A stretch of 63,206 nucleotides of DNA, filler included, from Diploschistes diacapsis (lineage: Eukaryota): the NCBI GenBank assembly GCA_023645945.1. It is 15 parts of 15 records of this genome, joined end to end, with 100 filler letters (N's around TTAATTAATTAA, not from the genome) between each part and the next. Parts side by side here need not be neighbours in the genome. Positions count along the whole stretch, not along the records: positions 60,620 to 63,206 come from JALAIB010002148.1; 14 more parts are not named here. One strand, 5' to 3'. Below, in pieces: positions 29,001 to 63,206 of this stretch (position 1 is its first letter; every line of letters starts with the position of its first letter). Made by a program: the position numbers and the translations under genes. Under the pieces are notes generated by a model. That model was not told the DNA's origin, did no database searches, and saw only the letters and a program-made list of their open reading frames with translations.

Positions 29001-29592
29001 TAGGCTGGCCGTCACAGACACTGACACGGCCGTGTCAGTGACACGGACACTGACAGTGTCAGTATCCGTATTTTAGATTTTTTAGCTACAGTGTCCGTGT
29101 CCGTGGATTTACGGAAATACAGTATCCGTGTCAGTATCAATATTTTAAAATTTTTAATTATAATGTCCGTGTCCGTGCTTTTATTATAATATAATGTCCG
29201 TGTTAATGTCCGTATCGAAATTTTTTTTATTACGGTGTCCGTGTCCGTGCATTTAACGAAATTTTTTTAAATATTTTTTTAATTTTAATAAATCTGGAAT
29301 TATCACGTCTATTTTTTACGCTTTTATTTTTTTAAAAAAATTTCATCGCGGTGTTTCGGTGGATTTATCGTAATATTTCGATAAATTTACTATAATATAA
29401 TATCCGTATTAATATTAATGTTTTAAAAACTTTAATTATAATGTCCGTATCCGTGCTTTTATTATAATACAATATCCGTGTTAGTGTCCGTGTTTTAAAA
29501 TTCTAGCTATAGTATCCGTGTCAGTGTCCGTGTTTTGAAATTTTTTGCTGTAGTGTCCGTGTCAGTGACCGTGGCACGAAACGGCCAGCCTA
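29001..29592 (+). mobile_element. Non-autonomous TIR element (MITE-like) with internal ~30-nt periodic repeats
   Basis: Perfect 12-bp TIR TAGGCTGGCCGT...ACGGCCAGCCTA; recurring GTGTCCGTGTC(C/A)GTG motif; related copies at 36420-36698 and 43827-44210. Confidence 0.8.
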
Positions 29593-30413: not shown

Positions 30414-30748
30414 TGTTACGATCCAAGTAACTAGGTGATAGTCCACTTGTTATGATCTCTATCTCTACAAGGTAGACACGAGGTATTGATTAAGGTGGGT
30501 TTGGTCTCTATTAGAAGAGGAGTATAGGAAAAAGAAGAAATAGATCGGTTATAAATCTGTACTGATCTCTAAAAAGATTACTTTCTCTTAATAGAAGGAA
30601 ACGAATATAAATTGATTTTAAACAATCACTTAAGATATTTATAAAAATGAACACGCCTCGATTTATAAAAGCTATAACGGTATTCTTGTATAATTAATTA
30701 ATTTTTAGCGAAATAAATTAATAAATAAATAGAATTACCGTTCTCCCG
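30414..30748. mobile_element. Nested gypsy family-A LTRs: + copy from 30414 interrupted at 30448 by an inverted copy
   Basis: TGTTACGATCCAAG at 30414, then TGTTATGATCTCTATCTC (reverse complement of the LTR 3' end) at 30448. Confidence 0.8.
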
Positions 30749-36419: not shown

Positions 36420-36698
36420 ACATGATAATTCTAAAATTATTAAAATTAAAAAAATAATTTAAAATGTTTCGGTAAATACACGGACACGGATACCGTAATA
36501 AAAAATTTTTCGATACGGATACTGACACGGATATTATATTATAATGAAAGCACGGACACGGACATTGTAATTAAAAATTTTAAAATATTGATATTGATAC
36601 GGACACTGTATTTCCGTGAATCCACGGACACGGATACCGCAGCTAAAAAATCTAAAACACGGACACTGACACTGTCAGTGTCAGTGACGGCCAGCCTA
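36420..36698 (-). mobile_element. Partial copy of the TAGGCTGGCCGT TIR element, abutting a copia-type LTR
   Basis: Ends GACGGCCAGCCTA; reverse-complement homology to 29001-29310. Confidence 0.8.
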
Positions 36699-38099
36699 GT
36701 TTAGAAGTCTTGTCCTAAGAAGTATTCTATTGTATAGACTTTTATCCTTCACGGTATGCGTTAAGCCCTACTGCCCTAACCGGTCTAGCTAGAATCCCAG
36801 CAGGTTCAGGAAGGAAGTTGAGCTGAACTGAACTTTCTAGTTCACTTAACCTAAATCTTCCGAAATTAGATCGAGACTGCCATGCCTTCTACCTATCCGC
36901 TCAACACTCCCCCACAAGCGGAACCATCCAGCATATCTAGTTTAACTGGATCTTTTAACCTAGGCCGAGTTTCCTGCCTCGAGTAGTATAGTAGCTTCGC
37001 ACGCTATTAGCGAGAAAAAATGAAAACAATCCGCTTATCGGATAAATTATTTTTTATCTTATTACCCTTTTTTTAATCGAATGGGTTCAGTTTAGTTCAG
37101 CCGAACTTCGATGATTATCGAAGGATATCGAAAAGATTTAGTAATAATAAAGCTAAATATCGATTATTATTAAGTATCGAGATAGTCCAGCGGCGATAAA
37201 GCTGAATATCGATGATTATCGAAAGGTCGAAAAGGTTCAGTAAAGGTTTAACTAAATTCTTAATAATTGTCGAAAGTTTCGACTAGATCTAGCAACAATA
37301 GGTAACGATATTATTAATTATTAAAGATTGACGAAGGGATTCGACTAGATCTAGTAACGAAGGTAGCGATGCTACTAATTATCGAAGATTGACGAGAGAT
37401 TTAAGTAAATCTAATAACGAAAATAACGGTGTTATTAGTTATCAAAAATTAACGAGAGATTCGACTAGATCTAACAGCGAAGATAGCGGTACTATTAGTT
37501 ATCGAAAATTAACGAAGAAGATCGATGGAGTTTAGCGTAAGAATTCAACTGAACTTCGATCGTTAACGGAGGAAGAGAAGGAGGTCGAAGGTTTTTCATT
37601 AGTTTGGTAGATAATGAATCCGAAAGCCAAGTACTTCTTATTTCAGCATATTTTTTATAATAATATATCTTCTATTTTTGGATCTATTTATTTTAAGATT
37701 TTATAATTTAGATTTTAAGATTTCGGATTTCTTCGACTTAAATTATTAAAATTAATATAATCGGTCCCGCGTTCATAATCGTATTAATTACCGAAAAGAC
37801 TTATCTTTAATATATTAATAATACGAAATAATTCGAATAATTTAATTCGGGTTTATAATCTATTTAATAACGTAATAAATATATTAAAGTTTAAAATTTT
37901 AATTTAAAAGATTATTTTGCTTTATAGACTTTTATTTACGTAAAATACGCTAAGTTTTATTATTTATACCATTTTTTAATCGGTTTAGTTAAAATTCCAA
38001 AAAGTTTAGTTAAACTAAACCTCGAAGTTCAGCTCAACTGAACCTCCTTCTGGAACTCAGTCGAACTCCCAGCCATACCTTCTGCCTGTCTACTCAACA
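36699..38099 (-). mobile_element. Short (~1.4 kb) non-autonomous copia-type LTR element: 5' LTR ~37861-38099, degenerate PBS, internal 60-bp repeats, PPT, 3' LTR 36699-36906
   Basis: Both LTRs begin TGTTGAG; GTGGGGGAG polypurine tract immediately before the 3' LTR; no room for pol. Confidence 0.7.
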
Positions 38100-38703
38100 A
38101 AAACGAATGATAAAATTTAAACGTTTCTTTTGTTTCGAAGATGAAAAAGACATCGCTGTCTTACGACTTGGGATTCTCTTTTATTTAATACTTATGCTTA
38201 TCCTTCGGTACTTGTCGGGCCGACAAAGTTAAAGAAGAGGGATAGTATTACGATTCAAATGACTAGATAATAGTCCACTTAGTACTTCATAATTGATCGG
38301 ATATCTTCTCAATCATTCCTTATATATAGTCCAATTATGGTGATACTGGTCACGTGATGAATAAAAAGCTTTAAAGGTTATTTTACCTTTCTATAGGTAG
38401 AACGGGAGAACGTTAATTTTATCTATCTATTGATTTATTTTACTAGAGAGTAGTTGGCTATATATAAACACCGCTATGGTTCCTATAAGTTGGGGCGTGT
38501 TTACTTTTATAAATATCTTTAGCGATTGTTCGAGATCAATTTATATTCGTTACTTTTTATTAACAGAAAGCAATCTTTTTAGAGATCAATACAGACCTGT
38601 AACCGATCTACTTCTTCTCTTTCCTATACTCCTCTTCTAACAGAGACTAAACCTACCTTGATCAATACCTCGTGTCTACCTTGTAGAGATAGAGATCATA
38701 ACA
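38100..38703 (+). mobile_element. Gypsy family-A 3' end: start of antisense ORF, PPT, LTR 38246-38703
   Basis: AAAGAAGAGGGATAG PPT, then TATTACGATTC...GATCATAACA; antisense ATG at 38153. Confidence 0.85.
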
Positions 38704-38890
38704 AATAACGGACACGCATAAAAATTAAAAGATCTTACTTAATAGATATAACGATATTAAATAAAATAACTCGTCTAAATCAACTAATAGGGTTTAATAT
38801 CAAGTAATAATCGGTAGTATTATACATATAATAATTTATATTAAACCAGATATTGCCTTCGCAATTAAAAAACTTAATCAATATATAAAT
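38704..38890 (+). mobile_element. Degenerate copia pol fragment (RT-RNaseH connection)
   Basis: YQVIIGSIIY...KPDIAFAIKKLNQY resembles copia YQSxIGSLMY...TRPDIAFAVxxLSQY. Confidence 0.65.
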
Positions 38891-43177: not shown

Positions 43178-43669
43178 TAAAGATATCTTTAAATAAATAC
43201 CGCTCTTCTATCTAACTGTATTTAGAAAAGTAAAATATAAAAAAATAGATCCCGGAACACGACTACGTCGAAAAAAAAATATTAAAAATAATAAAATTTT
43301 AAATATTTCAGTTGCCGAAAAAATACAGAACTATATTAAGATATAAAAATAACGAAATAAAAATTTCTTACTTATAAAACTTATATAAAGTTCGTTATAA
43401 GACAACGAACTATTGCGAAGAGGGATCGTATATAAACATAAAAATAAACCGCATACTTGATAGGGATAGTTCCTATAGGGCAGCTCCATTTAAGGAGGCC
43501 TGCTAGGTAACTCTAGAAAAAAGAATACATCCTATACTTCACAAATGTCCTACCTAGGTATGCTGTTGACTACGAAATCACACTACATTCCCCTACTACA
43601 CCACCTACGACTATCTACCTACTACAGCAAGGGAAGTCTCCCTAGACAGCGCGCCTTGTGTTTATATTA

Positions 43670-43826
43670 TATAATTAACTGCTCTTTAATAGAATAAATT
43701 AATAAATAGATAGAATTACCGTTCTCCCGTTCTATTTATAAAAGGATAAAATAGCCTTTAAGGCTTTCTACTTATCACGTGACCCGTGTTACTATGATTG
43801 GACTATATATAAGGAATGGTTGAGAA
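43670..43826 (-). mobile_element. Partial gypsy family-A LTR interrupted by the TIR element
   Basis: TCACGTGACCCGTG...GATTGGACTATATATAAGGAATGG shared with the other family-A LTRs. Confidence 0.75.
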
Positions 43827-44210
43827 TAGGCTGGCCGTCACTGACACTGACACTGACAGTGTCAGTGTCCGTGTTTTAGATTTTTTAGCTGCGGTGTCCG
43901 TGTCCGTGGATTCACGGAAGTGCAGTGTCCGTGTCAGTGTCAGTATTTCAGATTTTTTAGCTGCGGTGTCCGTGTCCGTGCTTTCACTATAATACAATAT
44001 CCGTGTCAGTGTCCGTGCCGAGAAAATTTTTACTACGATATCCATATCCGTGCTTTCACTATAATATAGTATCCGTATCAATATCCGTGCTGAGAAAATT
44101 TTGATTACGGTATCCGTGTCCGTAAATATATTACGATATAATATCCGTGTCAGTATCCGTGCCGAGAAAATTTTAACTACGATATCCCTGTCCGTAAATA
44201 TATTACGTGT
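43827..44210 (+). mobile_element. TAGGCTGGCCGT TIR element, left end with an expanded ~30/60-nt array
   Basis: Same TIR and repeat motif as 29001-29592. Confidence 0.8.
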
Positions 44211-44409: not shown

Positions 44410-47016
44410 CTTATATTATTCTAATAGATAAATCAATGCGATATTAATACCCTTTATTATTTAATATACTTTTAGAGATTAATATAAAATCGTATTTAAT
44501 CTTTTTCTTCTTCCTATTTACATTTTTCTCCTATACGAGACCAAATTTACCTTAATCGATACCTCGTGTCTACGTTATAAAGATAAAGATTATAATACTT
44601 AAATATCCTTAAAAATAAATGTAACTAATAGCACGACCGGGCGATCGCCACCGATAACTAGATCCGTACTATTCTAAATCCTAAGAAAAGCGACCCCATC
44701 GGAAAAAAGGAATGTCCCTATAGCGGACACGGCGGAAACCAAAAATAACGATTCCGGAAATAACGATAAACCCGACGAAAATAACCCGCACAAAAAACCC
44801 ATTATAAAAACAGCAAGATTAATAACGTTCCACGAAAACCGCAAAAAACTAAAACACTAAATACTCCAACTCTCAATATACTTCTTTTAGAACCCGCACA
44901 TCATAGACGACTAAAGACAGCGAACCGTCTTCGCCGTAAGATTCATACGTAACCGCGCATTGACATAGATAAAACCCTATCTCGACGTATACTTAAAAAA
45001 CCAAAAAGATAGCTACGAAATATTTAAAAACTTCGCAAAATTTAAAAAATAAGTCCGACTAACCTTCGGTATAACCAACGATAAAGAATATACGATCCGA
45101 GTCATCAAAACAGTTAACCAACGAAGCTCAGCTTCAAAATACACGGCAAAATTTTAAGAATTCGCCAAACTAACTAAATAAAATAAAGAAACCTTAATAG
45201 AAATATACAAGAACGGACTTAAAAACTTAATCAAAAATAAATTCATACGCAATTAAAACCAGATTCAGAATCTATCGACCCTTTAAGCTAAAATAATTAT
45301 CATAAACGACCGAATATTTAATCGAAAACAAGAACGTCGCTTTAATCGAAACAAAACTATTAAACCAAAACTTCGTTACCGCACTAATTATATAAAGAAC
45401 ACACAAAATACACGACATATAGACACCGACGCCATAGATCTCGATACCTTAACTAACAGACCCCGTCCTAATCAGAAAAAAAAAACGAAAGGACTCAAAG
45501 GAAGACCTTCAGCCAAAGGAAAGAAATGCTTCGAATATGGCAAGATTGGCCACTTCGCTCGAAATTATAGATCAAGAAACAAAATCGATAGAAAAGACAC
45601 CCTAACAACGACAGATCAATATTTCAACGCAACTATCGAATACCTTACAAAGGAATGGCCGACCGACGGTTAATTTTGGGAGAAAATCACCACCGAATCG
45701 GACAACACAGCCTGACAGGGCGACACCGACGATTCAGCGGATAAAGACACCGAAATTACGCCTTTACTAATTATAACATCAAACGACGAACAGGTTTCGA
45801 AAAGCAACGATATTCTAAACAAAAATATAACGGAATATAGAGAAATAACTAAACTATTGTTATCAATAATTTAAACATGCTATCTAATCCCTAAAACTAA
45901 ATCGAACAATCAAGGACCCTTAAACAACAATCCTAACGAAGACACATCGTACGAATTTAACGTTAACGGTCAAATCATTGAACGATAAGAATACTTTTAA
46001 AAAAAAGCTCTCGTAATTAACGATAAGAATCATCCGGACCATAAACGACTAAACAAATACGGAGACTTCGAATGCAATTACGAAAGACATCGCGACGGGA
46101 AGTACGTCCTATATAACAAGCTAATAACCGATATAACCTTCGCACGGTATTACGAACACGTCTTATTAAATATTCAACATCAAAATTATTACTTTATATA
46201 CGACTATATCGATAAGAATTATAAAACGCATCTCTATAATATAGAAAAAAAAGAAAACCTAAGACCATCATTTATAAACGGAAAAAACGTTATATCAAAA
46301 GTTTATTTCGCGTACGAAACGTGCAAGAACGGAAAGTACGAATATCCACTATATTTAACACTTACGTTATCGCGAAACTGCCGAGACAACAATTGTATAA
46401 TCTTAATATATCACGATTAGAGATTCTGAGACGGTATAATTTAGAAATTAAGATTAACGGACGAAGACCCAATGCACCTAGTATACGTTCTATAAAGTTA
46501 CCGTTTCTGCAGGGCTGCAAACTGCAAATACCACGATAGAGGATTTTCTTACCCCATTAATAAAGACATTATAAAAAAAGCCAGAGCTTTTCAGTTGTGA
46601 ATCGAACTAAAGAACTATGCGCCATAGACATAAGTACTGACGCGCGGATTCAAATGCGGAGAATTTGAGCCGATTTCGAAATCGGATTAGATCGACAAGC
46701 TATACGGACATTAATCGATTTTAGTGCTACGATAAACGCCATCTTAATTACTTATACATAAAGATTAAAGATAAAGAATTGCGAATTAAAAAAGAAATAT
46801 AACATCGAAATCGTAATAGGACGTAACGTTATACGAATTATTAAACGTACGCTTCCGCTAATAATTAAAATCTTAAGGCATGTTAAGGAACTTATCTTCG
46901 ATATAATAAAAATAATCGTCTACGATGTTATTCTCGGAGATCTTTAGTTAAACATTTACAACCCGTTAATCAACTTCAAGACACGGACTTTCGATATAAA
47001 TAAATATACGTATATT
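44410..47016 (+). mobile_element. Gypsy family-A 5' part: end of 5' LTR (to 44597), degenerate gag with zinc knuckle, aspartic protease
   Basis: KCFEYGKIGHFARNY (CCHC with Cys to Tyr) at ~45524-45570; TLIDFSAT (DSGA-like) at ~46710; many TAA stops. Confidence 0.85.
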
Positions 47017-57387: not shown

Positions 57388-57823
57388 GTTACGATCCAAG
57401 GTACTGTTCGGCAGTACTTGGCACGCAACAGCTAGTCGGGTACTTCCCAGCCATTCCTTATATATAGTCTAATTAGGGTGACACGGGTCACGTGATAAGT
57501 AAAAAGTCTTAAAAACTATTTTATTCAGTCGTAAATAGAAAAAAAGAACAATAATTCTATTTATTTATTTATTTATTTTATTAAAGGAACTGTTAGCTAT
57601 ATAAAAACGTCGCTATGGCCTTTATAAATCTAGAGCGTGTTTACTTTTATAAACATCTTAAGTTATTATTCGAGATCAATCTATATTCGTTATCTTTAGT
57701 ATTTTAAAGCCTTCTTTCCAGAAATAATCTAAGATCTATAATTATTCTATCTTTTTTTCCTGTTATATTCTTCTTTTAATAGAGATTAAACTTACCTTAA
57801 TTCTACTCGTGTATATCTTATAT
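57388..57823 (+). mobile_element. Gypsy family-A LTR (near complete; no PPT upstream)
   Basis: Starts TGTTACGATCCAAG; internal motifs shared with the other copies. Confidence 0.85.
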
Positions 57824-57923: not shown

Positions 57924-58654
57924 GATAAAAACAATCGATAAAATCTTAAGAAACGTTAACATACTTTTTACTAATTTTAACACATTCTACGCACTTAATA
58001 GATTTTAAAGGCATCTTATAACAGTCTTTACTCAGTCGAAAACAACCTTAATAAAAAAAAGAATCAAAAAATCTAAATCGATAGATCTAATCGATTAAGC
58101 GATAATTACGAAGAATTAAAGAAGATATCGTTGTTTCACGACTTAGGATTCTTTTTTGTTTAATATTTATATTAGACCCTTCGGCGAATCATCGGGCCGA
58201 TAATATTGAAAAAAAAAGATAATATCACGATTTAAATAATTACTAAATAATCTACTTAACACGTCCCAGCTTTTTTATATATAGGCTAATCATGGTGACG
58301 CGGGTTACGTAATCGATAAACGACAATCGACAACCGTCTGGCAGCTGACATCTAACGGTTGTTAGATGGGCGACGCCAGCCGGCTGGTATCTAATATTTA
58401 ACGATATTAACTATATATAGGAACGTCGCCGCGATTTTCTTAAATCCGATATATTTATTTTTATAAACATCCTTAATTATTACTCGGATCAATTTATATT
58501 CGTTATCTCTATTATTAAAACCTTCTTTCCGGAGATAGTCTAGGACCTATAATTATTCTACCTTCTTTTCCTACTTACACTCCTCTTCTAAACGAGACCA
58601 AATTCACTTTGATCAATACCTCGTGTCTACCTTATAGAAATAGAAATCATAACA
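57924..58654 (+). mobile_element. Gypsy family-A 3' end: antisense six-Cys ORF relic, PPT, LTR 58223-58654
   Basis: Same layout as 61244-62341; LTR ends ATCATAACA. Confidence 0.85.
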
Positions 58655-59220
58655 TTCTAATGCGTTGAATGCTTGTTTCTTTAATAATTCTTTTTCTTGA
58701 ATAAGATAGTTAAGCTTAACATTTTATAACTTACGTTTATCGAAAGTAACTGAATAAAATAATCCGTTATTATTTTTCTGAAATAATTGATATCTTAAAG
58801 CCCATTCGGACGCATCCGTGTCTATTATAAACGATTCGCGTAATTTAAGTTATATTAATATTGATTTATTAGTTAAAACAGTTTTTAACGCTTTAAAAAC
58901 AGTCTGACATTAAATAGTCCAAATGATCGTTCGATATTTATTTATACGGGTCTAAGTATTTTCGGATTTAATTAAGTTTGATAAAGGCGATGCGATATTA
59001 GTAAATTTAGATACAAATCGACGGTAATAAGTGATTAATTTTAAAAATTGTCGTACTTTATGAACATTCGTAGGGACAGATTATTTTAAAATAGTATCGA
59101 TTTTGTTCTAAGCTGGTCTAATAACGCTATTTTTAACGATATGATTCACAAACTCGAGAAACTTTTTACCGATTTGACACTTCTTAGGATTTACGTATAA
59201 ATCGTTTCTTTTTAATTCTG
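58655..59220 (-). mobile_element. Degenerate gypsy RT/RNase H fragment
   Basis: LYVNPKKC..., VPTNVHKVRQFL..YYRRFV..IASPL, FIIDTDASEWAL, NYLIQEKELL. Confidence 0.88.
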
Positions 59221-60519
59221 TGTTATGATCTCTATCTCTACAAAGTAGACACGAGGTATTGATCAAGGTGGGTTTGGTCTCGTTTAGAAGAGGAGTGTAA
59301 GTAGGAAAAGAAGGTAGAGCAATTACAGGTCTTAGACTGTTTTTAGAAAGGAAGGTTTTCTAATAATAGAAGTAACGAATATAGATTGATTCCGAATAAT
59401 AATTATGGATGTCTATAAAAGTAAATATATTAAGATTTATAAAAGTTATGGCGACGTTTATATATATAGTTTAGAATAATAATTAATTGCCGATAATAAA
59501 GTTGTCGCGATAGCGTTGTTATTAATAAAAACCTACCCGAGCAGATCTGTTCCGATAAACATCTATTATCAGGTATCTATCAGTCACGTGACCCGCGTCA
59601 CCTTGGCTGGTTTATATATAAGAAAGCTGGGACGTGTTAAGTCTGGTACTTGGATCGTAATATTATTCCTTTTTTTCAGCATTATCGGCCCCATGATTCG
59701 CCGAAAGGTCTGATATAAATATTAAATAAAAAAGAATCCCAAGTCGTGGGACAACGATATCTTCTTTAATTTCCTGTAATCATAGATTTGCCGACCGAAT
59801 CTTTCGATTAAATAAAACCGTTGATTTCTTTTGCTTCTACTGTTCTGTTTCTTACAATTGTATTATTATGTCGTTCATTTTTTCCCGCTGCGAGAGATGC
59901 GTTCGTTTTAGACGGAAGAACTGCGTATCGATATCCTAGAAGGTTATAGACAGGATACGCGTTTAAACGGAATCTAGGTTAGAGGTAGAAGAGGAGAAAA
60001 GACGAAAGCTTTTTTTTTAGTTAGTAGAACACGAGGCCCGTATTGAGAGACTACGGAAGACTTTTAAGCTAACCGAAAAGAAATTTATAAAACAAGTAAA
60101 GTGTCTTGTTGATCAACTCGACGAAGAGGCGGAGGCGGTCGGTGACTTTAATAATAGTATGGTGCTTACGGGTAGCCCGCAAGATCTTTAGTTCTTAGCG
60201 GCTATGTCGCTATTTTAAATAAACTGGGAGTTAGGGGACGAGGTCCCTGTCCCGATAAGTTAGTTTTTATATTAGGTATACGTATGTTTCGTAAATTTTC
60301 TATCTTTAATCCTAATTGTTTTTAATAGTAAGTCCGTTAATGTCGTAGAATTTCGCTAATTTTATCTTATAGTGTTTTAGGTTTTTTTTAGGTTCTTATA
60401 TTATTTCCGATTTTGAGTAATCTTTCTATTAAATTAAGTATCTATCGTCTTTATAATATATTATTATTTCGACTTCGTATTCATTTTCGTTATTTAATTC
60501 GAAATAGAAGGTATCTTAT
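59221..60519 (-). mobile_element. Gypsy family-A 3' end (inverted): chromodomain relic, antisense ORF, PPT, LTR 59221-59662
   Basis: ENEYEVE..YLI..DY..EPKKNL chromodomain relic at ~60370-60490; LTR termini TATTACGATCC / GATCATAACA. Confidence 0.88.
59757..60263 (+). pseudogene. Retrotransposon-borne antisense ORF: Zn2Cys6-like motif plus coiled coil (stop-interrupted)
   Basis: C-x2-C-x5-C-x9-C-x2-C-x7-C at 59832-59924 (CFYCSVSYNCIIMSFIFSRCERCVRFRRKNC); single frame with internal TAG/TAA stops. Confidence 0.8.
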
Positions 60520-60619: not shown

Positions 60620-62341
60620 CGGTTAAACAGAAAGAATGAATTAAACTTTCGAACAATATTTACGGTATTACGTTAATCAGAATATAGATAATTGGGTTGA
60701 ATTATTATCGAACGCCGAATACTATTTTAATAATAAATATAAAGAAATTAAAAAGATTTAGAATATACGATTACCCAATAACGAGATACTGAGAAATATT
60801 AAAAAATACACGATCTTAAAAAAGAATCATTAATTAAAAAAGGGAAATAAAATCTATCTATATATAAATAATTTTAGAACACGTAAACTTTTTAAAAAAC
60901 TCGATCACGTTAAAGTCGGATCTTTTCTTATCGATAAATAACCCGTTATACCGGACGAAATCAGACGAGTTAATTATCGACTTAAATTATTAAAGGACGT
61001 AAAAGTTTATTCAATGTTTTATTTACAATATCTCGAATTAATATATCTAGACATACCGTTATAAAAAACCTTTTATTTCGAAATAAATAACGAAAACGAA
61101 TACGAAGTTAAAAAGATCTTGAATAATAACCTTAACGGATTTCTTATTAAGTAGAAAGGATACTCGTTAGAACAGAACACGTGGAAATCTTTAGAAAATT
61201 TGAATAATTATAAGAACAAGATAAGAGAATATCGTAGACTTATTTAATTTAGAAGGATAGAAGTTTTATTTTTTAAAAATTAATTTAACTGAGCCGGCGA
61301 TATTGTAGTTAGTTTTAACAATTCTGGACCGAACTCCGAAGGCACGCCTTCTTAGGCGTTCGCGTACGTTTCGGACGATTTTAAATCTAGTTCTTTCGTT
61401 AAACATCTCGCTTGCGCGTTCGCACGATTTTCCGTTAGCTTAAGAATCTTTCGGTTACGGCGAATGCGACGTTTGCGTTAGAGACGACGATCTTTAATTT
61501 TACGGAGTTGTTTTTTTAGCTCTTCCTTTTGCTTATTATTTTCGTTAATAAGCTTTTTATCCTTCTCGATCTCGTCTTTTTTCGAAAGGATGATCCGTTT
61601 AATTACTTTTTATGTAATAGAGACACAGTTCTTTTTATTAGATTTAGTATAGCGAGTATATTTTATCGAGATAGAAGGCATCCTGATATAGTCGTGAAAG
61701 AATAGGTAGTGGTTATAAGATAATGTGTCTAAAAAGCCCCGAAGACGAATGATAGAGTTTAAACGTTTTTTTTGTATTAAAGATGAAGAAGATATCGCTG
61801 TCCTACGATTTAAGATTTTCTTTTGTTTAGTATTTATATTAATTCTTCGGTGCTTGTCGGGCCGATAAGGCTGAAGGAAAAGGATAATATTACGATCCAA
61901 GTTATTAGTCGGTAGTATTTAGTACGTAATAGCTAGTCGGGCATTTTTTAATTATTTTTTATATATAGTCCAATCAGGGTGACACGGGTCACGTGATGAG
62001 TAGAAGGTCTTAGAAACCATTTTATTTAGTTATAGGTAGAAAGGGAGAACGGTAATTTTATTTATTTATTTATTTACTTTATTGAGGGAGTTGTTGGTTA
62101 TATAGGAACGTCGTTATGGCTTTTATGAGTTTAGGGCGTGTTTACTTTTATAGATATCTTGAGTTATTGCTCGGGATTAATTTATATTCGTTATTTTTAT
62201 TATTTTAGAGCTTTTTTATTAGAGATAGTTTAAGATTTATGATTGTTCTATCTTCTTTTCCTGCCACATTCCTCTTCTAACAGAGATCAAACCCACCTTG
62301 ATCCTACTCGTGTATATCTTGTATAGATAGAGATCATAACA
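60620..62341 (+). mobile_element. Gypsy family-A (chromovirus) 3' end: integrase, chromodomain, antisense ORF 61795-61244, PPT, LTR 61888-62341
   Basis: G*TERMN*TFEQYLRYYV..NWVELL, KKLDHVKVGSF, EYEVKKIL..FLIK*KGY..NTWKSLENL. Confidence 0.9.
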
Positions 62342-62929
62342 CTAGTTTGCTTTCGATGTCTAGTACTTCTAAGTATAATAGATCTAGGAAATCTTAATTA
62401 AAGATATCTTCCGAGATACCAGATAATAATAGATAACTTTAAACTAGCTTCAAACTAGCAGAAAGAAGATCGAAGATCAGATCGACATATCTAGCTAAAA
62501 CTTGATTATAACTTAGTTAAAAAAAGGAAAGAAAGATAAAACAGTGCATAGAGCCAAGTTCTGGTAGCTATAAATGGAAAAATAGGGAAGTTCACAAAGA
62601 CCAAGCTTTAATATGAATTCTAGTCCACTAAAGAGGACTGATACAGACAAAGACTTGTTGCTGGAGCTCTAAAGACGCTCTAGGAATTAGTCGAACAATC
62701 GTTGCTACCAAATGTCAGTTTATAATCAAATTTGTAAGTGGTGAAAAAGATAGATTCTAAAAGCTAGGTAGGTGTAACGAGCTCTTATAGCAACAGGTAG
62801 TGGATGCCTAATGGCATCGTGGGCCATGACGTCACAAGCAACACCGGCAGATGCAAGTCTAAGCGACACGCAAGCGACACCTCCTAGTAGCAGCAACAGC
62901 CTGTAGCCATAGCTGCTATAGCTACTACA
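62342..62929 (-). mobile_element. Gypsy family-B 5' LTR (62713-62929) with intact PBS and leader
   Basis: TGTAGTAGC...ACTGACA, then TT and TGGTAGCAAC (complementary to an initiator tRNA-Met-type 3' end); leader homologous to 55650-55990. Confidence 0.82.
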
Positions 62930-63206
62930 GGGTTATTCGATTCGAATAACGTCAAATCGGGTTAGTTAATTCTAGAACGGCTCGTAACGCCTAATTAAAT
63001 TCTTTATTAACCTTTCGCAGTTCGGTTATATTTGGTAGAAAGTTATATAATAAGAATAAATCTAAATCGAATTAATTCGAGATTGAAAGAGGGCTGTAAA
63101 ATGGAAGTGAAAGGGTCCGGTAAGTCGAATAAAGTTTATTAAACACGGTTATAAAATTAATAAATTATAATTCAATATTAATAAAGCTTATTTAAACGTT
63201 TCGATT

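Follow-up and report, generated by a model that had tools for sequence, protein, structure and literature searches.

Near the end of the DNA stretch from Diploschistes diacapsis analysed here (the window, 63,206 nucleotides in length), a minus-strand frame of 184 codons runs from 61795 to 61244, between the remains of a pol gene and an LTR. The question that this locus raises is whether the frame belongs to a gene, and what its product might do for the element that carries it. The first part can be answered firmly: 61795 to 61244 is confirmed as a RIP-killed copy of a real antisense gene in a fungal Ty3/Gypsy chromovirus. It is almost certain that the antisense frame represents a real gene; the window copy itself is dead and without function. 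Its contig (C1278, positions 60620-63206, from assembly G000 of 29.1 Mb in 4361 contigs) is laid out as follows:

60621 to 61247, plus strand: 3' end of pol, with the C-terminal part of the integrase and a chromodomain, broken; apparent stop at 61245-61247
61244 to 61795, minus strand: antisense accessory ORF of type A, 183 codons plus stop, broken by RIP
61247 to 61402, minus strand: C-terminal tail of the type-A ORF
61349 to 61612, minus strand: long helix or coiled coil, codons 62-149, placed from the model of the intact relative P0001
61625 to 61717, minus strand: six-cysteine cluster C-x2-C-x5-C-x9-C-x2-C-x7-C, codons 27-57, Zn2Cys6-like
61796 to 61887, minus strand: spacer of 92 nt from the LTR edge to the ORF start, read from the sequence
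61831 to 61838: TATA-like box in the spacer, facing the type-A ORF
about 61868 to 61887, plus strand: polypurine tract within the spacer, ending at 61887 just before the LTR
61888 to 62341, plus strand: 3' LTR with a RIP-altered TG start and a TAACA end, present in many copies

The contig carries the end of pol only, not gag or the PR-RT-RH part. The chromodomain (PF00385) at the C-terminus of pol scores 27.7 bits in Pfam against a cut-off of 25.1 (E 2.5e-6), and an LTR with TG...CA ends follows the polypurine tract, the arrangement by which Ty3/Gypsy chromoviruses are recognised. The antisense placement between pol and the 3' LTR is that of an aORF-3R. The region is AT-rich, with a RIP-type composite index of 0.35-0.84 over 55-63 kb, where the first 28 kb has negative values. 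RIP damage is evident in the frame itself: C>T/G>A changes turned TGY into TAY and created stops. The start codon reads ATA, and internal stops stand at codons 62, 106, 148 and 172, so that the frame is not open. Five cluster cysteines are read as tyrosines (Tyr27, Tyr30, Tyr36, Tyr46 and Tyr49), followed by the intact Cys57. The initial annotation had described this state, and the frame reads as it was quoted there. The tyrosines occupy cysteine positions 1-5 with the x2-x5-x9-x2-x7 spacing of the copy at 59757, and intact relatives have cysteines at identical sites; the proposed alignment of the two tails was confirmed as well. The helix region of the type-A ORF is acidic in its first half and basic in its second, and contains a conserved seventh cysteine (codon 131).

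Several short motifs surround the ORF. The spacer contains CGG-G-CCG at 61857-61866, a possible factor site. In the LTR (61955-62000) a conserved TATATA is followed by GTGAC...GTCACGTGA, which may also be factor sites. The E-box core CACGTG lies at about -200 in 11 of 23 copies, and 5 of 15 intact relatives have it upstream too. No antisense promoter was read into the TATATA, which stands at about -170 in the LTR, since it fits either strand in all 23 of 23 copies.

The window holds two further copies of the gene with parts of their elements:

59221 to 59662, minus strand: LTR of the type-B copy
59757 to 60263, plus strand: type-B copy of the antisense gene on contig C1277, 168 codons plus stop
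60264 to 60519, minus strand: pol end of the type-B copy
57924 to 58128, minus strand: type-C copy, truncated by the contig end to its 5' part, with the canonical spacing x2-x6-x9-x2-x6
to about 58654, plus strand: spacer and LTR after the type-C copy

The type-B copy has all six cysteines intact and five internal stops. The neighbourhood of the 61795 and 59757 copies was rejected as a biological feature: they lie on separate contigs (C1278 and C1277) joined by an N spacer only, and their closeness therefore carries no meaning. Between 25313 and 60619, fourteen 100-base N spacers with a central TTAATTAATTAA follow one another about every 2.7 kb. After 25312 small unrelated contigs are concatenated in size order, so that neighbourhood across the spacers is not genomic. 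On the minus strand of 58655-59220, two LTR ends that face each other enclose a broken RT/RNase H fragment (PF17919, E 1.2e-14), a case of nested insertions into the pol of another Gypsy element. The LTR family of the antisense gene has additional pieces at 38100-38704, 30447-30748, 43668-43826, 44493-44604 and 57389-57820. The segment 38100-38266 is 80% like 61742-61908 (ORF start and spacer), yet has no match to the protein profile. A different, RIP-marked repeat family is arrayed at 29034-29567, 36420-36694 and 43837-44200; its units measure 72 bp, are rich in GTGTCCGTG/CACGGACAC and occur in either orientation. A three-copy array of 60 bp lies at 37335-37515.

The coding signal can be followed among the broken copies of D. 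diacapsis. At least 60 loci were obtained from own-genome searches in which the best 40 of 679 and the best 40 of 640 candidates were scored; column counts refer to copies of full length without gaps, of which there are 19 in type A and 8 in type B, frameshifted and partial copies being left out. In the six cluster columns, all 114 type-A codons are TGY or TAY (32 Cys, 82 Tyr), as are 47 of the 48 type-B codons. The control Tyr columns of type A behave differently (columns 29 and 34 alternate with His, and column 144 is Tyr in 19 of 19 copies), which argues that the Cys/Tyr-only pattern of the cluster is not chance. The first type-A codon is ATG in 7 and ATA in 12 of the 19 copies, and the last is TAA throughout. 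Stop-bearing columns are fewest in the antisense frame among all six frames (14 vs 25-31 in type A, 14 vs 21-32 in type B). Of 24 type-A copies 6 have small frameshifts, and of 13 type-B copies 3; all are private except one common to two copies, and none is fixed between types A and B.

Selection within the types was assessed by ignoring transitions and comparing shared transversions at fourfold and other sites. With C>T/G>A sites set aside in this way, the ratio is well below 1 in both types. Type A has transversions at 9 of 59 fourfold sites and 12 of 490 elsewhere (N/S 0.16, p=1e-4), a signal that comes mostly from two diverged copies (L023 and L029) compared with 17 near-identical ones. 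For type B the counts are 8 of 61 and 15 of 440 (N/S 0.26, p=0.003). Codon periodicity is absent from the LTR and spacer; the indel and transversion rates of the LTR pool types A and B and were left out of any comparison of rates. The two window copies do differ by transversions, as had been noted, with 50/32/65 by codon position (168 codon pairs, p=0.004), and their proteins are 27% identical. The in-frame difference of 15 codons described between them is real in size; it consists of two gaps, both in-frame (1 and 14 codons), and not of one. The pattern of substitutions in these copies supports the view that purifying selection preceded RIP inactivation.

Intact relatives were sought with a profile built from 14 broken copies against 1.84 billion representatives, which yielded 99 relative proteins. 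P0001 (183 aa) and P0102 align to the window type-A copy without gaps, with 45% and 56% identity (the latter being 55.6%), and the cysteines of these natural proteins stand at exactly 27, 30, 36, 46, 49, 57 and 131. There are no informative names among the relatives. The Atlas neighbours are Ascomycota clusters at 0.90-0.94, one of them auto-named Zn(2)-C6. In one relative of 407 aa (P0090) the coil and the second half of the cluster are duplicated in tandem, which may be an artefact of assembly or annotation. Longer fused forms (462-2000 aa) were absent among 8000 scored candidates, which is weak evidence, and none of the 44 pattern matches of an IMG/VR scan was confirmed.

A metagenome scan, for which a narrower alignment was used, gave 35 loci holding 40 matches. 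Of these matches, 35 are antisense to a pol end and face it, four run off the contig and one is without such context. Six metagenome loci were scanned for the remaining element genes: three (L064, L091 and L093) have the full gag-PR-RT-RH-IN-chromo order and three have gag or pol parts. Among GC-rich intact pairs the ORFs have dN/dS values of 0.09-0.28 (0 in one near-identical pair), comparable to those of their pol ends (0.08-0.23); transition-only, RIP-like pairs give 0.29-1.11. The earlier claim that the protein was under selection before its inactivation is thus borne out by the transversion ratios, the in-frame gaps and the intact relatives alike. The antisense ORF is common to most copies and conserved like the other element genes, as is typical of an aORF-3R.

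In 20 of 21 intact relatives the ATG follows the LTR edge at a distance of 76-117 nt. A TATA-like site is found 18-62 nt before the ATG in 15 of these 21, near-duplicates included (six are without such a site), vs 17 of 132 LTR control windows. In both window copies (61795, type A; 59757, type B) the TATA-like TATAAATA stands at -43. At the other end of the ORF, the overlap of its stop with the apparent pol stop on TTAA (61244-61247) had been singled out, and both stops are indeed there in 19 of 20 copies. The 4-nt overlap was rejected as a family feature: both stops lie at RIP-mutable sites, and all eight intact elements examined have an ORF that shares 53-113 nt with pol, so that the short overlap may be RIP-made. 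We conclude that the antisense frame is a protein-coding gene, the third in ascomycete Ty3/Gypsy chromoviruses; it is arranged tail-to-tail with pol and read away from the 3' LTR. Its coding selection, position and wide conservation are observed directly.

The encoded proteins are small (165-220 aa). The model of P0001 (mean pLDDT 90.5, pTM 0.53) consists of a helix (4-19), a cysteine knot, a single helix (62-149) and a looser tail. Zn(II)2Cys6 clusters follow the pattern C-x2-C-x6-C-x5..12-C-x2-C-x6..8-C. The canonical spacing (x2-x6-x8..13-x2-x6) is found in 96 of 103 related clusters; types C and D have the x6 second gap, and types A and B an x5 second gap and an x7 last gap. The cysteine domain of L064, modelled alone (pLDDT 83), retrieved Zn2Cys6 proteins in the top five rows of Foldseek (best E 0.45, TM 0.50) and in the top six rows of VIA (best Z 3.1, rmsd 1.6 over 40), each match being weak individually. 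The full-length model gave no match below E 9.8 in Foldseek and only generic coiled coils in VIA (Z up to 7.6). Sequence searches of the PDB returned nothing at E<0.001, the four weak rows of one search all being Zn2Cys6 proteins. In Pfam, Zn_clus (PF00172) matches 7 of 51 relatives weakly (best E 0.0019) and neither the window copies nor P0001; the window ORFs have no Pfam match of any kind. The protein probably has a zinc-cluster fold.

The residues by which such a domain would read DNA are a different matter. The CGG guanine is read by Lys18 in Gal4, and by Lys, His or Asn in others, according to passages of PMC6265462. At this position the 96 related proteins have Lys in 2, His in 0, Asn in 14, Gly in 27, Ser in 17 and Leu in 15. 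Basic residues between the second and third cysteines number 0.42 on average, with three or more in 1 of 103.

The length of the helix varies in heptad steps. The distance from the sixth to the seventh cysteine is 53, 60, 67, 74 or 88 in 87 of 90 proteins (the 90 of 172 in which both are locatable). It is 74 in type A and 60 in type B; the 14-codon gap between the window copies thus corresponds to two heptads. Cysteines, tryptophan and heptad register are kept across proteins that are 20-35% identical. In the four closest relatives the first half of the helix carries a charge of -8 to -12 and the second half of +8 to +13, as an antiparallel pair would favour; the polarity is weaker in two more distant relatives. 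Conserved basic residues of P0001 are found at 9, 11, 45, 51, 113, 115, 116 and 124. Of the relatives, 68 have a measurable tail, and in every one of these it is net acidic (median -9).

A two-copy prediction of P0001 (residues 1-150 with zinc) scored 0.47, against 0.00 for the best of three controls. At least 95% of the contacts are common to the runs (pLDDT at least 82), and the predicted contacts are antiparallel (111-76, 93-93 and 118-69). In a calibration without zinc, which the present prediction did include, 21 of 30 solved homo-pairs and 0 of 23 single chains reached the mark used for such dimers. Among eukaryotes 17 of 29 pairs reached it, but only 1 of 7 that had no older solved relative; a resemblance to known coiled coils may therefore drive the score. 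On balance, we lean towards an antiparallel homodimer as predicted. Knot residues 24-25 and 32-33 lie in its predicted interface, where loop 32-33 (the Gal4 Lys18 position) is buried against the partner helix. The loss of the Lys18-position residue and the predicted burial of this loop make sequence-specific DNA binding doubtful.

The initial annotation had spoken of selection across subfamilies. Selection across both copies holds, but the word proved too weak: the two copies represent two of four ancient types that occur on mixed backbones. Types C and D were reached by following the third copy at 58128-57924. In the D. diacapsis assembly the four deeply different gene types are observed on near-identical backbones. 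Among six representatives the spacers differ by 1-6.5% in transversions and the distal LTR by 2-8%, vs 14-31% between types over the first 180 nt of the ORFs; the spacer is nearly identical across all four ORF types. No type is as close to another type in D. diacapsis as it is to a foreign protein.

The combinations of pol end and ORF, drawn from this fragmented assembly, are mixed in both directions. The pol end of the 61795 copy is joined to ORF A in most loci and to D in L105 and L108 (2%), and a close form of it to C (L097, 5%) and to B (L039, 6%; L058, 9%). The other pol end, of the 59757 type, is found with B, with A (L016, L019 and L020; 1-3%) and with C (L098; 1%). Mixed junctions are seen repeatedly, in separate contigs that have their own private mutations and also in other data sets. 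The same mosaic is seen outside D. diacapsis: the intact elements L064 and L068 differ by a dS of 0.26 in their pol ends and of 1.16 in their ORFs, and for L064 against L068 and L070 the ranges are 0.16-0.26 and 1.1-1.2. We regard type swapping as probably real rather than a misassembly of repeats.

What, then, might the protein do? The best overall explanation, to which we would give an even chance, is a putative element-encoded accessory regulator; that it is a nuclear transcriptional or anti-silencing regulator seems about as probable as its opposite. A short transcript would start at a compact TATA promoter in the spacer of 80-115 nt, convergent with gag-pol. Its product would fold into a Zn2Cys6-type knot followed by a long helix that is predicted to pair antiparallel, so that a rod of about 9 nm (a length estimated from the residue rise) would carry one knot at either end. 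Each knot is predicted to pack on the conserved basic segment of the partner, leaving two acidic tails. The protein would enter the nucleus and, as an accessory factor, regulate its own element family in trans. The composite basic ends might hold nucleic acid or chromatin, though not in the CGG mode of Gal4, and the acidic tail might recruit the transcription machinery; the element would thereby stay expressed, by activation or by anti-silencing. Recombination in the conserved spacer and at the pol end would swap whole gene types. Four very different types behind one LTR and spacer fit poorly, however, to a factor that co-evolves with a site in its own LTR.

The main rival is a protein-protein adaptor directed against host defence, in which the end knots bind silencing or surveillance proteins, or the integration complex, and the types are products of an arms race. 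We hold it to be a serious but tentative possibility. It is favoured by the lost base-reading residue, by the uncoupling of four ancient types from LTR and pol and by the contrast of dS between pol ends and ORFs in L064 and L068, and would also agree with the predicted packing of the knot loop on the partner helix. B-boxes, which sit on the antiparallel coils of TRIM proteins, offer an analogy. On the other hand, selection within the types is purifying, with no dN/dS above 1 in intact pairs, and the conserved basic residues and acidic tail suit nucleic-acid binding and activation. A bolder and rather doubtful reading is that of an exchangeable accessory cassette: a captured host zinc-cluster domain would cap an antiparallel coil ruler of heptad-tuned length, and the types, older than the host lineages, would be shuffled because each pairs with itself or counters a different host silencing factor, making the gene a counter-defence or self-recognition locus.

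It is unlikely that the protein handles RNA or is associated with particles, for instance by a Rev-like export or the packaging of genomic RNA with the rod spanning two RNA sites. The conserved Arg/Lys-rich segment and the small size would suit such a role, and retroviral accessory proteins are the analogy drawn in passages of plant aORF reviews (PMC7264820, PMC11963269); the fold neighbours, however, are DNA-binding domains of transcription factors, an acidic tail would be unexpected, and none of the results points to RNA. Very unlikely is a canonical Gal4-type factor, bound as a parallel dimer to paired CGG triplets in the LTR or spacer. The canonical spacing in most clusters, a coiled coil after the cluster as in Gal4-type proteins (passages of PMC6265462), the Asn that Pho7 has at the Lys18 position and that recurs in some relatives, and the CGG-N-CCG of the window spacer all speak for it; the scarcity of basic residues between the second and third cysteines and the predicted antiparallel dimer speak against it.

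That the frame has no protein function, being a shadow of pol on the other strand or mattering only as antisense RNA, is largely refuted and keeps hardly any probability. In its favour, the pol-strand frame sharing third positions has a transversion ratio in type B much like that of the antisense frame (0.27, p=0.003), with a weaker bias in type A (0.43, p=0.09), and column 106 is a stop in all 19 gap-free type-A copies. Against it, every copy has the same fixed stops in that pol-strand frame, 4 in type A and 5 in type B; two frameshifted copies (L030 and L057) have a sense codon at column 106; and the cysteines, tryptophan and heptad register are conserved across the diverged proteins.

Fungal Gypsy elements are usually treated as gag-pol only, with one antisense gene (brtn) in print and no function given for it. 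The present gene family is widespread, under selection and has a testable structure. If its product is a regulator or an anti-silencing factor, it bears on the persistence of retrotransposons against RIP and RNAi. Since many small fungal proteins annotated as Zn(2)-C6 or hypothetical are transposon genes, counts of transcription factors can be inflated. The four ancient types on one backbone raise a question of specificity that is directly testable.

Antisense genes at the pol/3' LTR position are already known, from plants and as brtn of Botrytis. Zhao (2011; PMID 21802103) is said to have studied brtn, the antisense gene of a Botrytis retrotransposon. Passages of four papers place such a gene in the Boty elements of Botrytis and Sclerotinia (PMC7264820, PMC8365987, PMC4227169, PMC5987419); it is drawn in Fig. 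S1 of PMC8365987, and the Boty domain list in PMC4227169 includes chromodomain Gypsy features. As in Boty, the element described here is an ascomycete chromodomain Gypsy element in which an additional gene, opposite in sense to gag-pol, fills the space from pol to the 3' LTR. The antisense gene may well be of the same family as BRTN, the chances for and against being about level. The likeness is one of position and host element; no protein bearing the name BRTN was returned among the relatives, and the passages citing BRTN make no mention of a cysteine cluster, a coiled coil or exchangeable types. The fungal LTR survey PMC3248453 has no passage on 'antisense' or 'additional ORF', and PMC2864245 refers, in a figure legend only, to an additional ORF of unknown function. 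A zinc-cluster/coiled-coil antisense gene of fungal Gypsy elements was not found described in the literature searched, most subscription papers being outside its reach, and neither type swapping nor a heptad-stepped antiparallel rod was found there.

The plant aORF-3R of Ty3/Gypsy elements (Grande gene23, RIRE2, Retand TRP28), as presented in passages of PMC7264820 and PMC11963269, share position, orientation and a conservation equal to that of other element genes. In these passages Grande gene23 has its own promoter, and a regulatory role is proposed for plant aORFs. They belong, however, to a non-chromovirus lineage, with a pol-LTR region of 2.9-6.6 kb and TRP28 or Smc-like domains, whereas the fungal unit is compact (0.6 kb) and encodes a fungal zinc-cluster-like domain; in Pfam, none of 51 relatives matches the TRP28 domain.

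With the Zn(II)2Cys6 factors (Gal4, Ppr1, Put3, Leu3, Hap1 and Pho7; PF00172) the protein shares the six-cysteine pattern, the predicted fold, a downstream coil and an acidic C-terminal region. It differs from them in its size of only 165-220 aa, its extra N-terminal helix, its origin from a retrotransposon and its conserved seventh cysteine, as well as in the x5 and x7 gaps of types A and B, the Lys18 position, which is not conserved, and a helix of about 88 residues that is predicted to pair antiparallel. In those factors a coiled-coil dimer holds the clusters side by side on paired CGG triplets, whereas here the clusters are predicted to lie at opposite ends of the rod.
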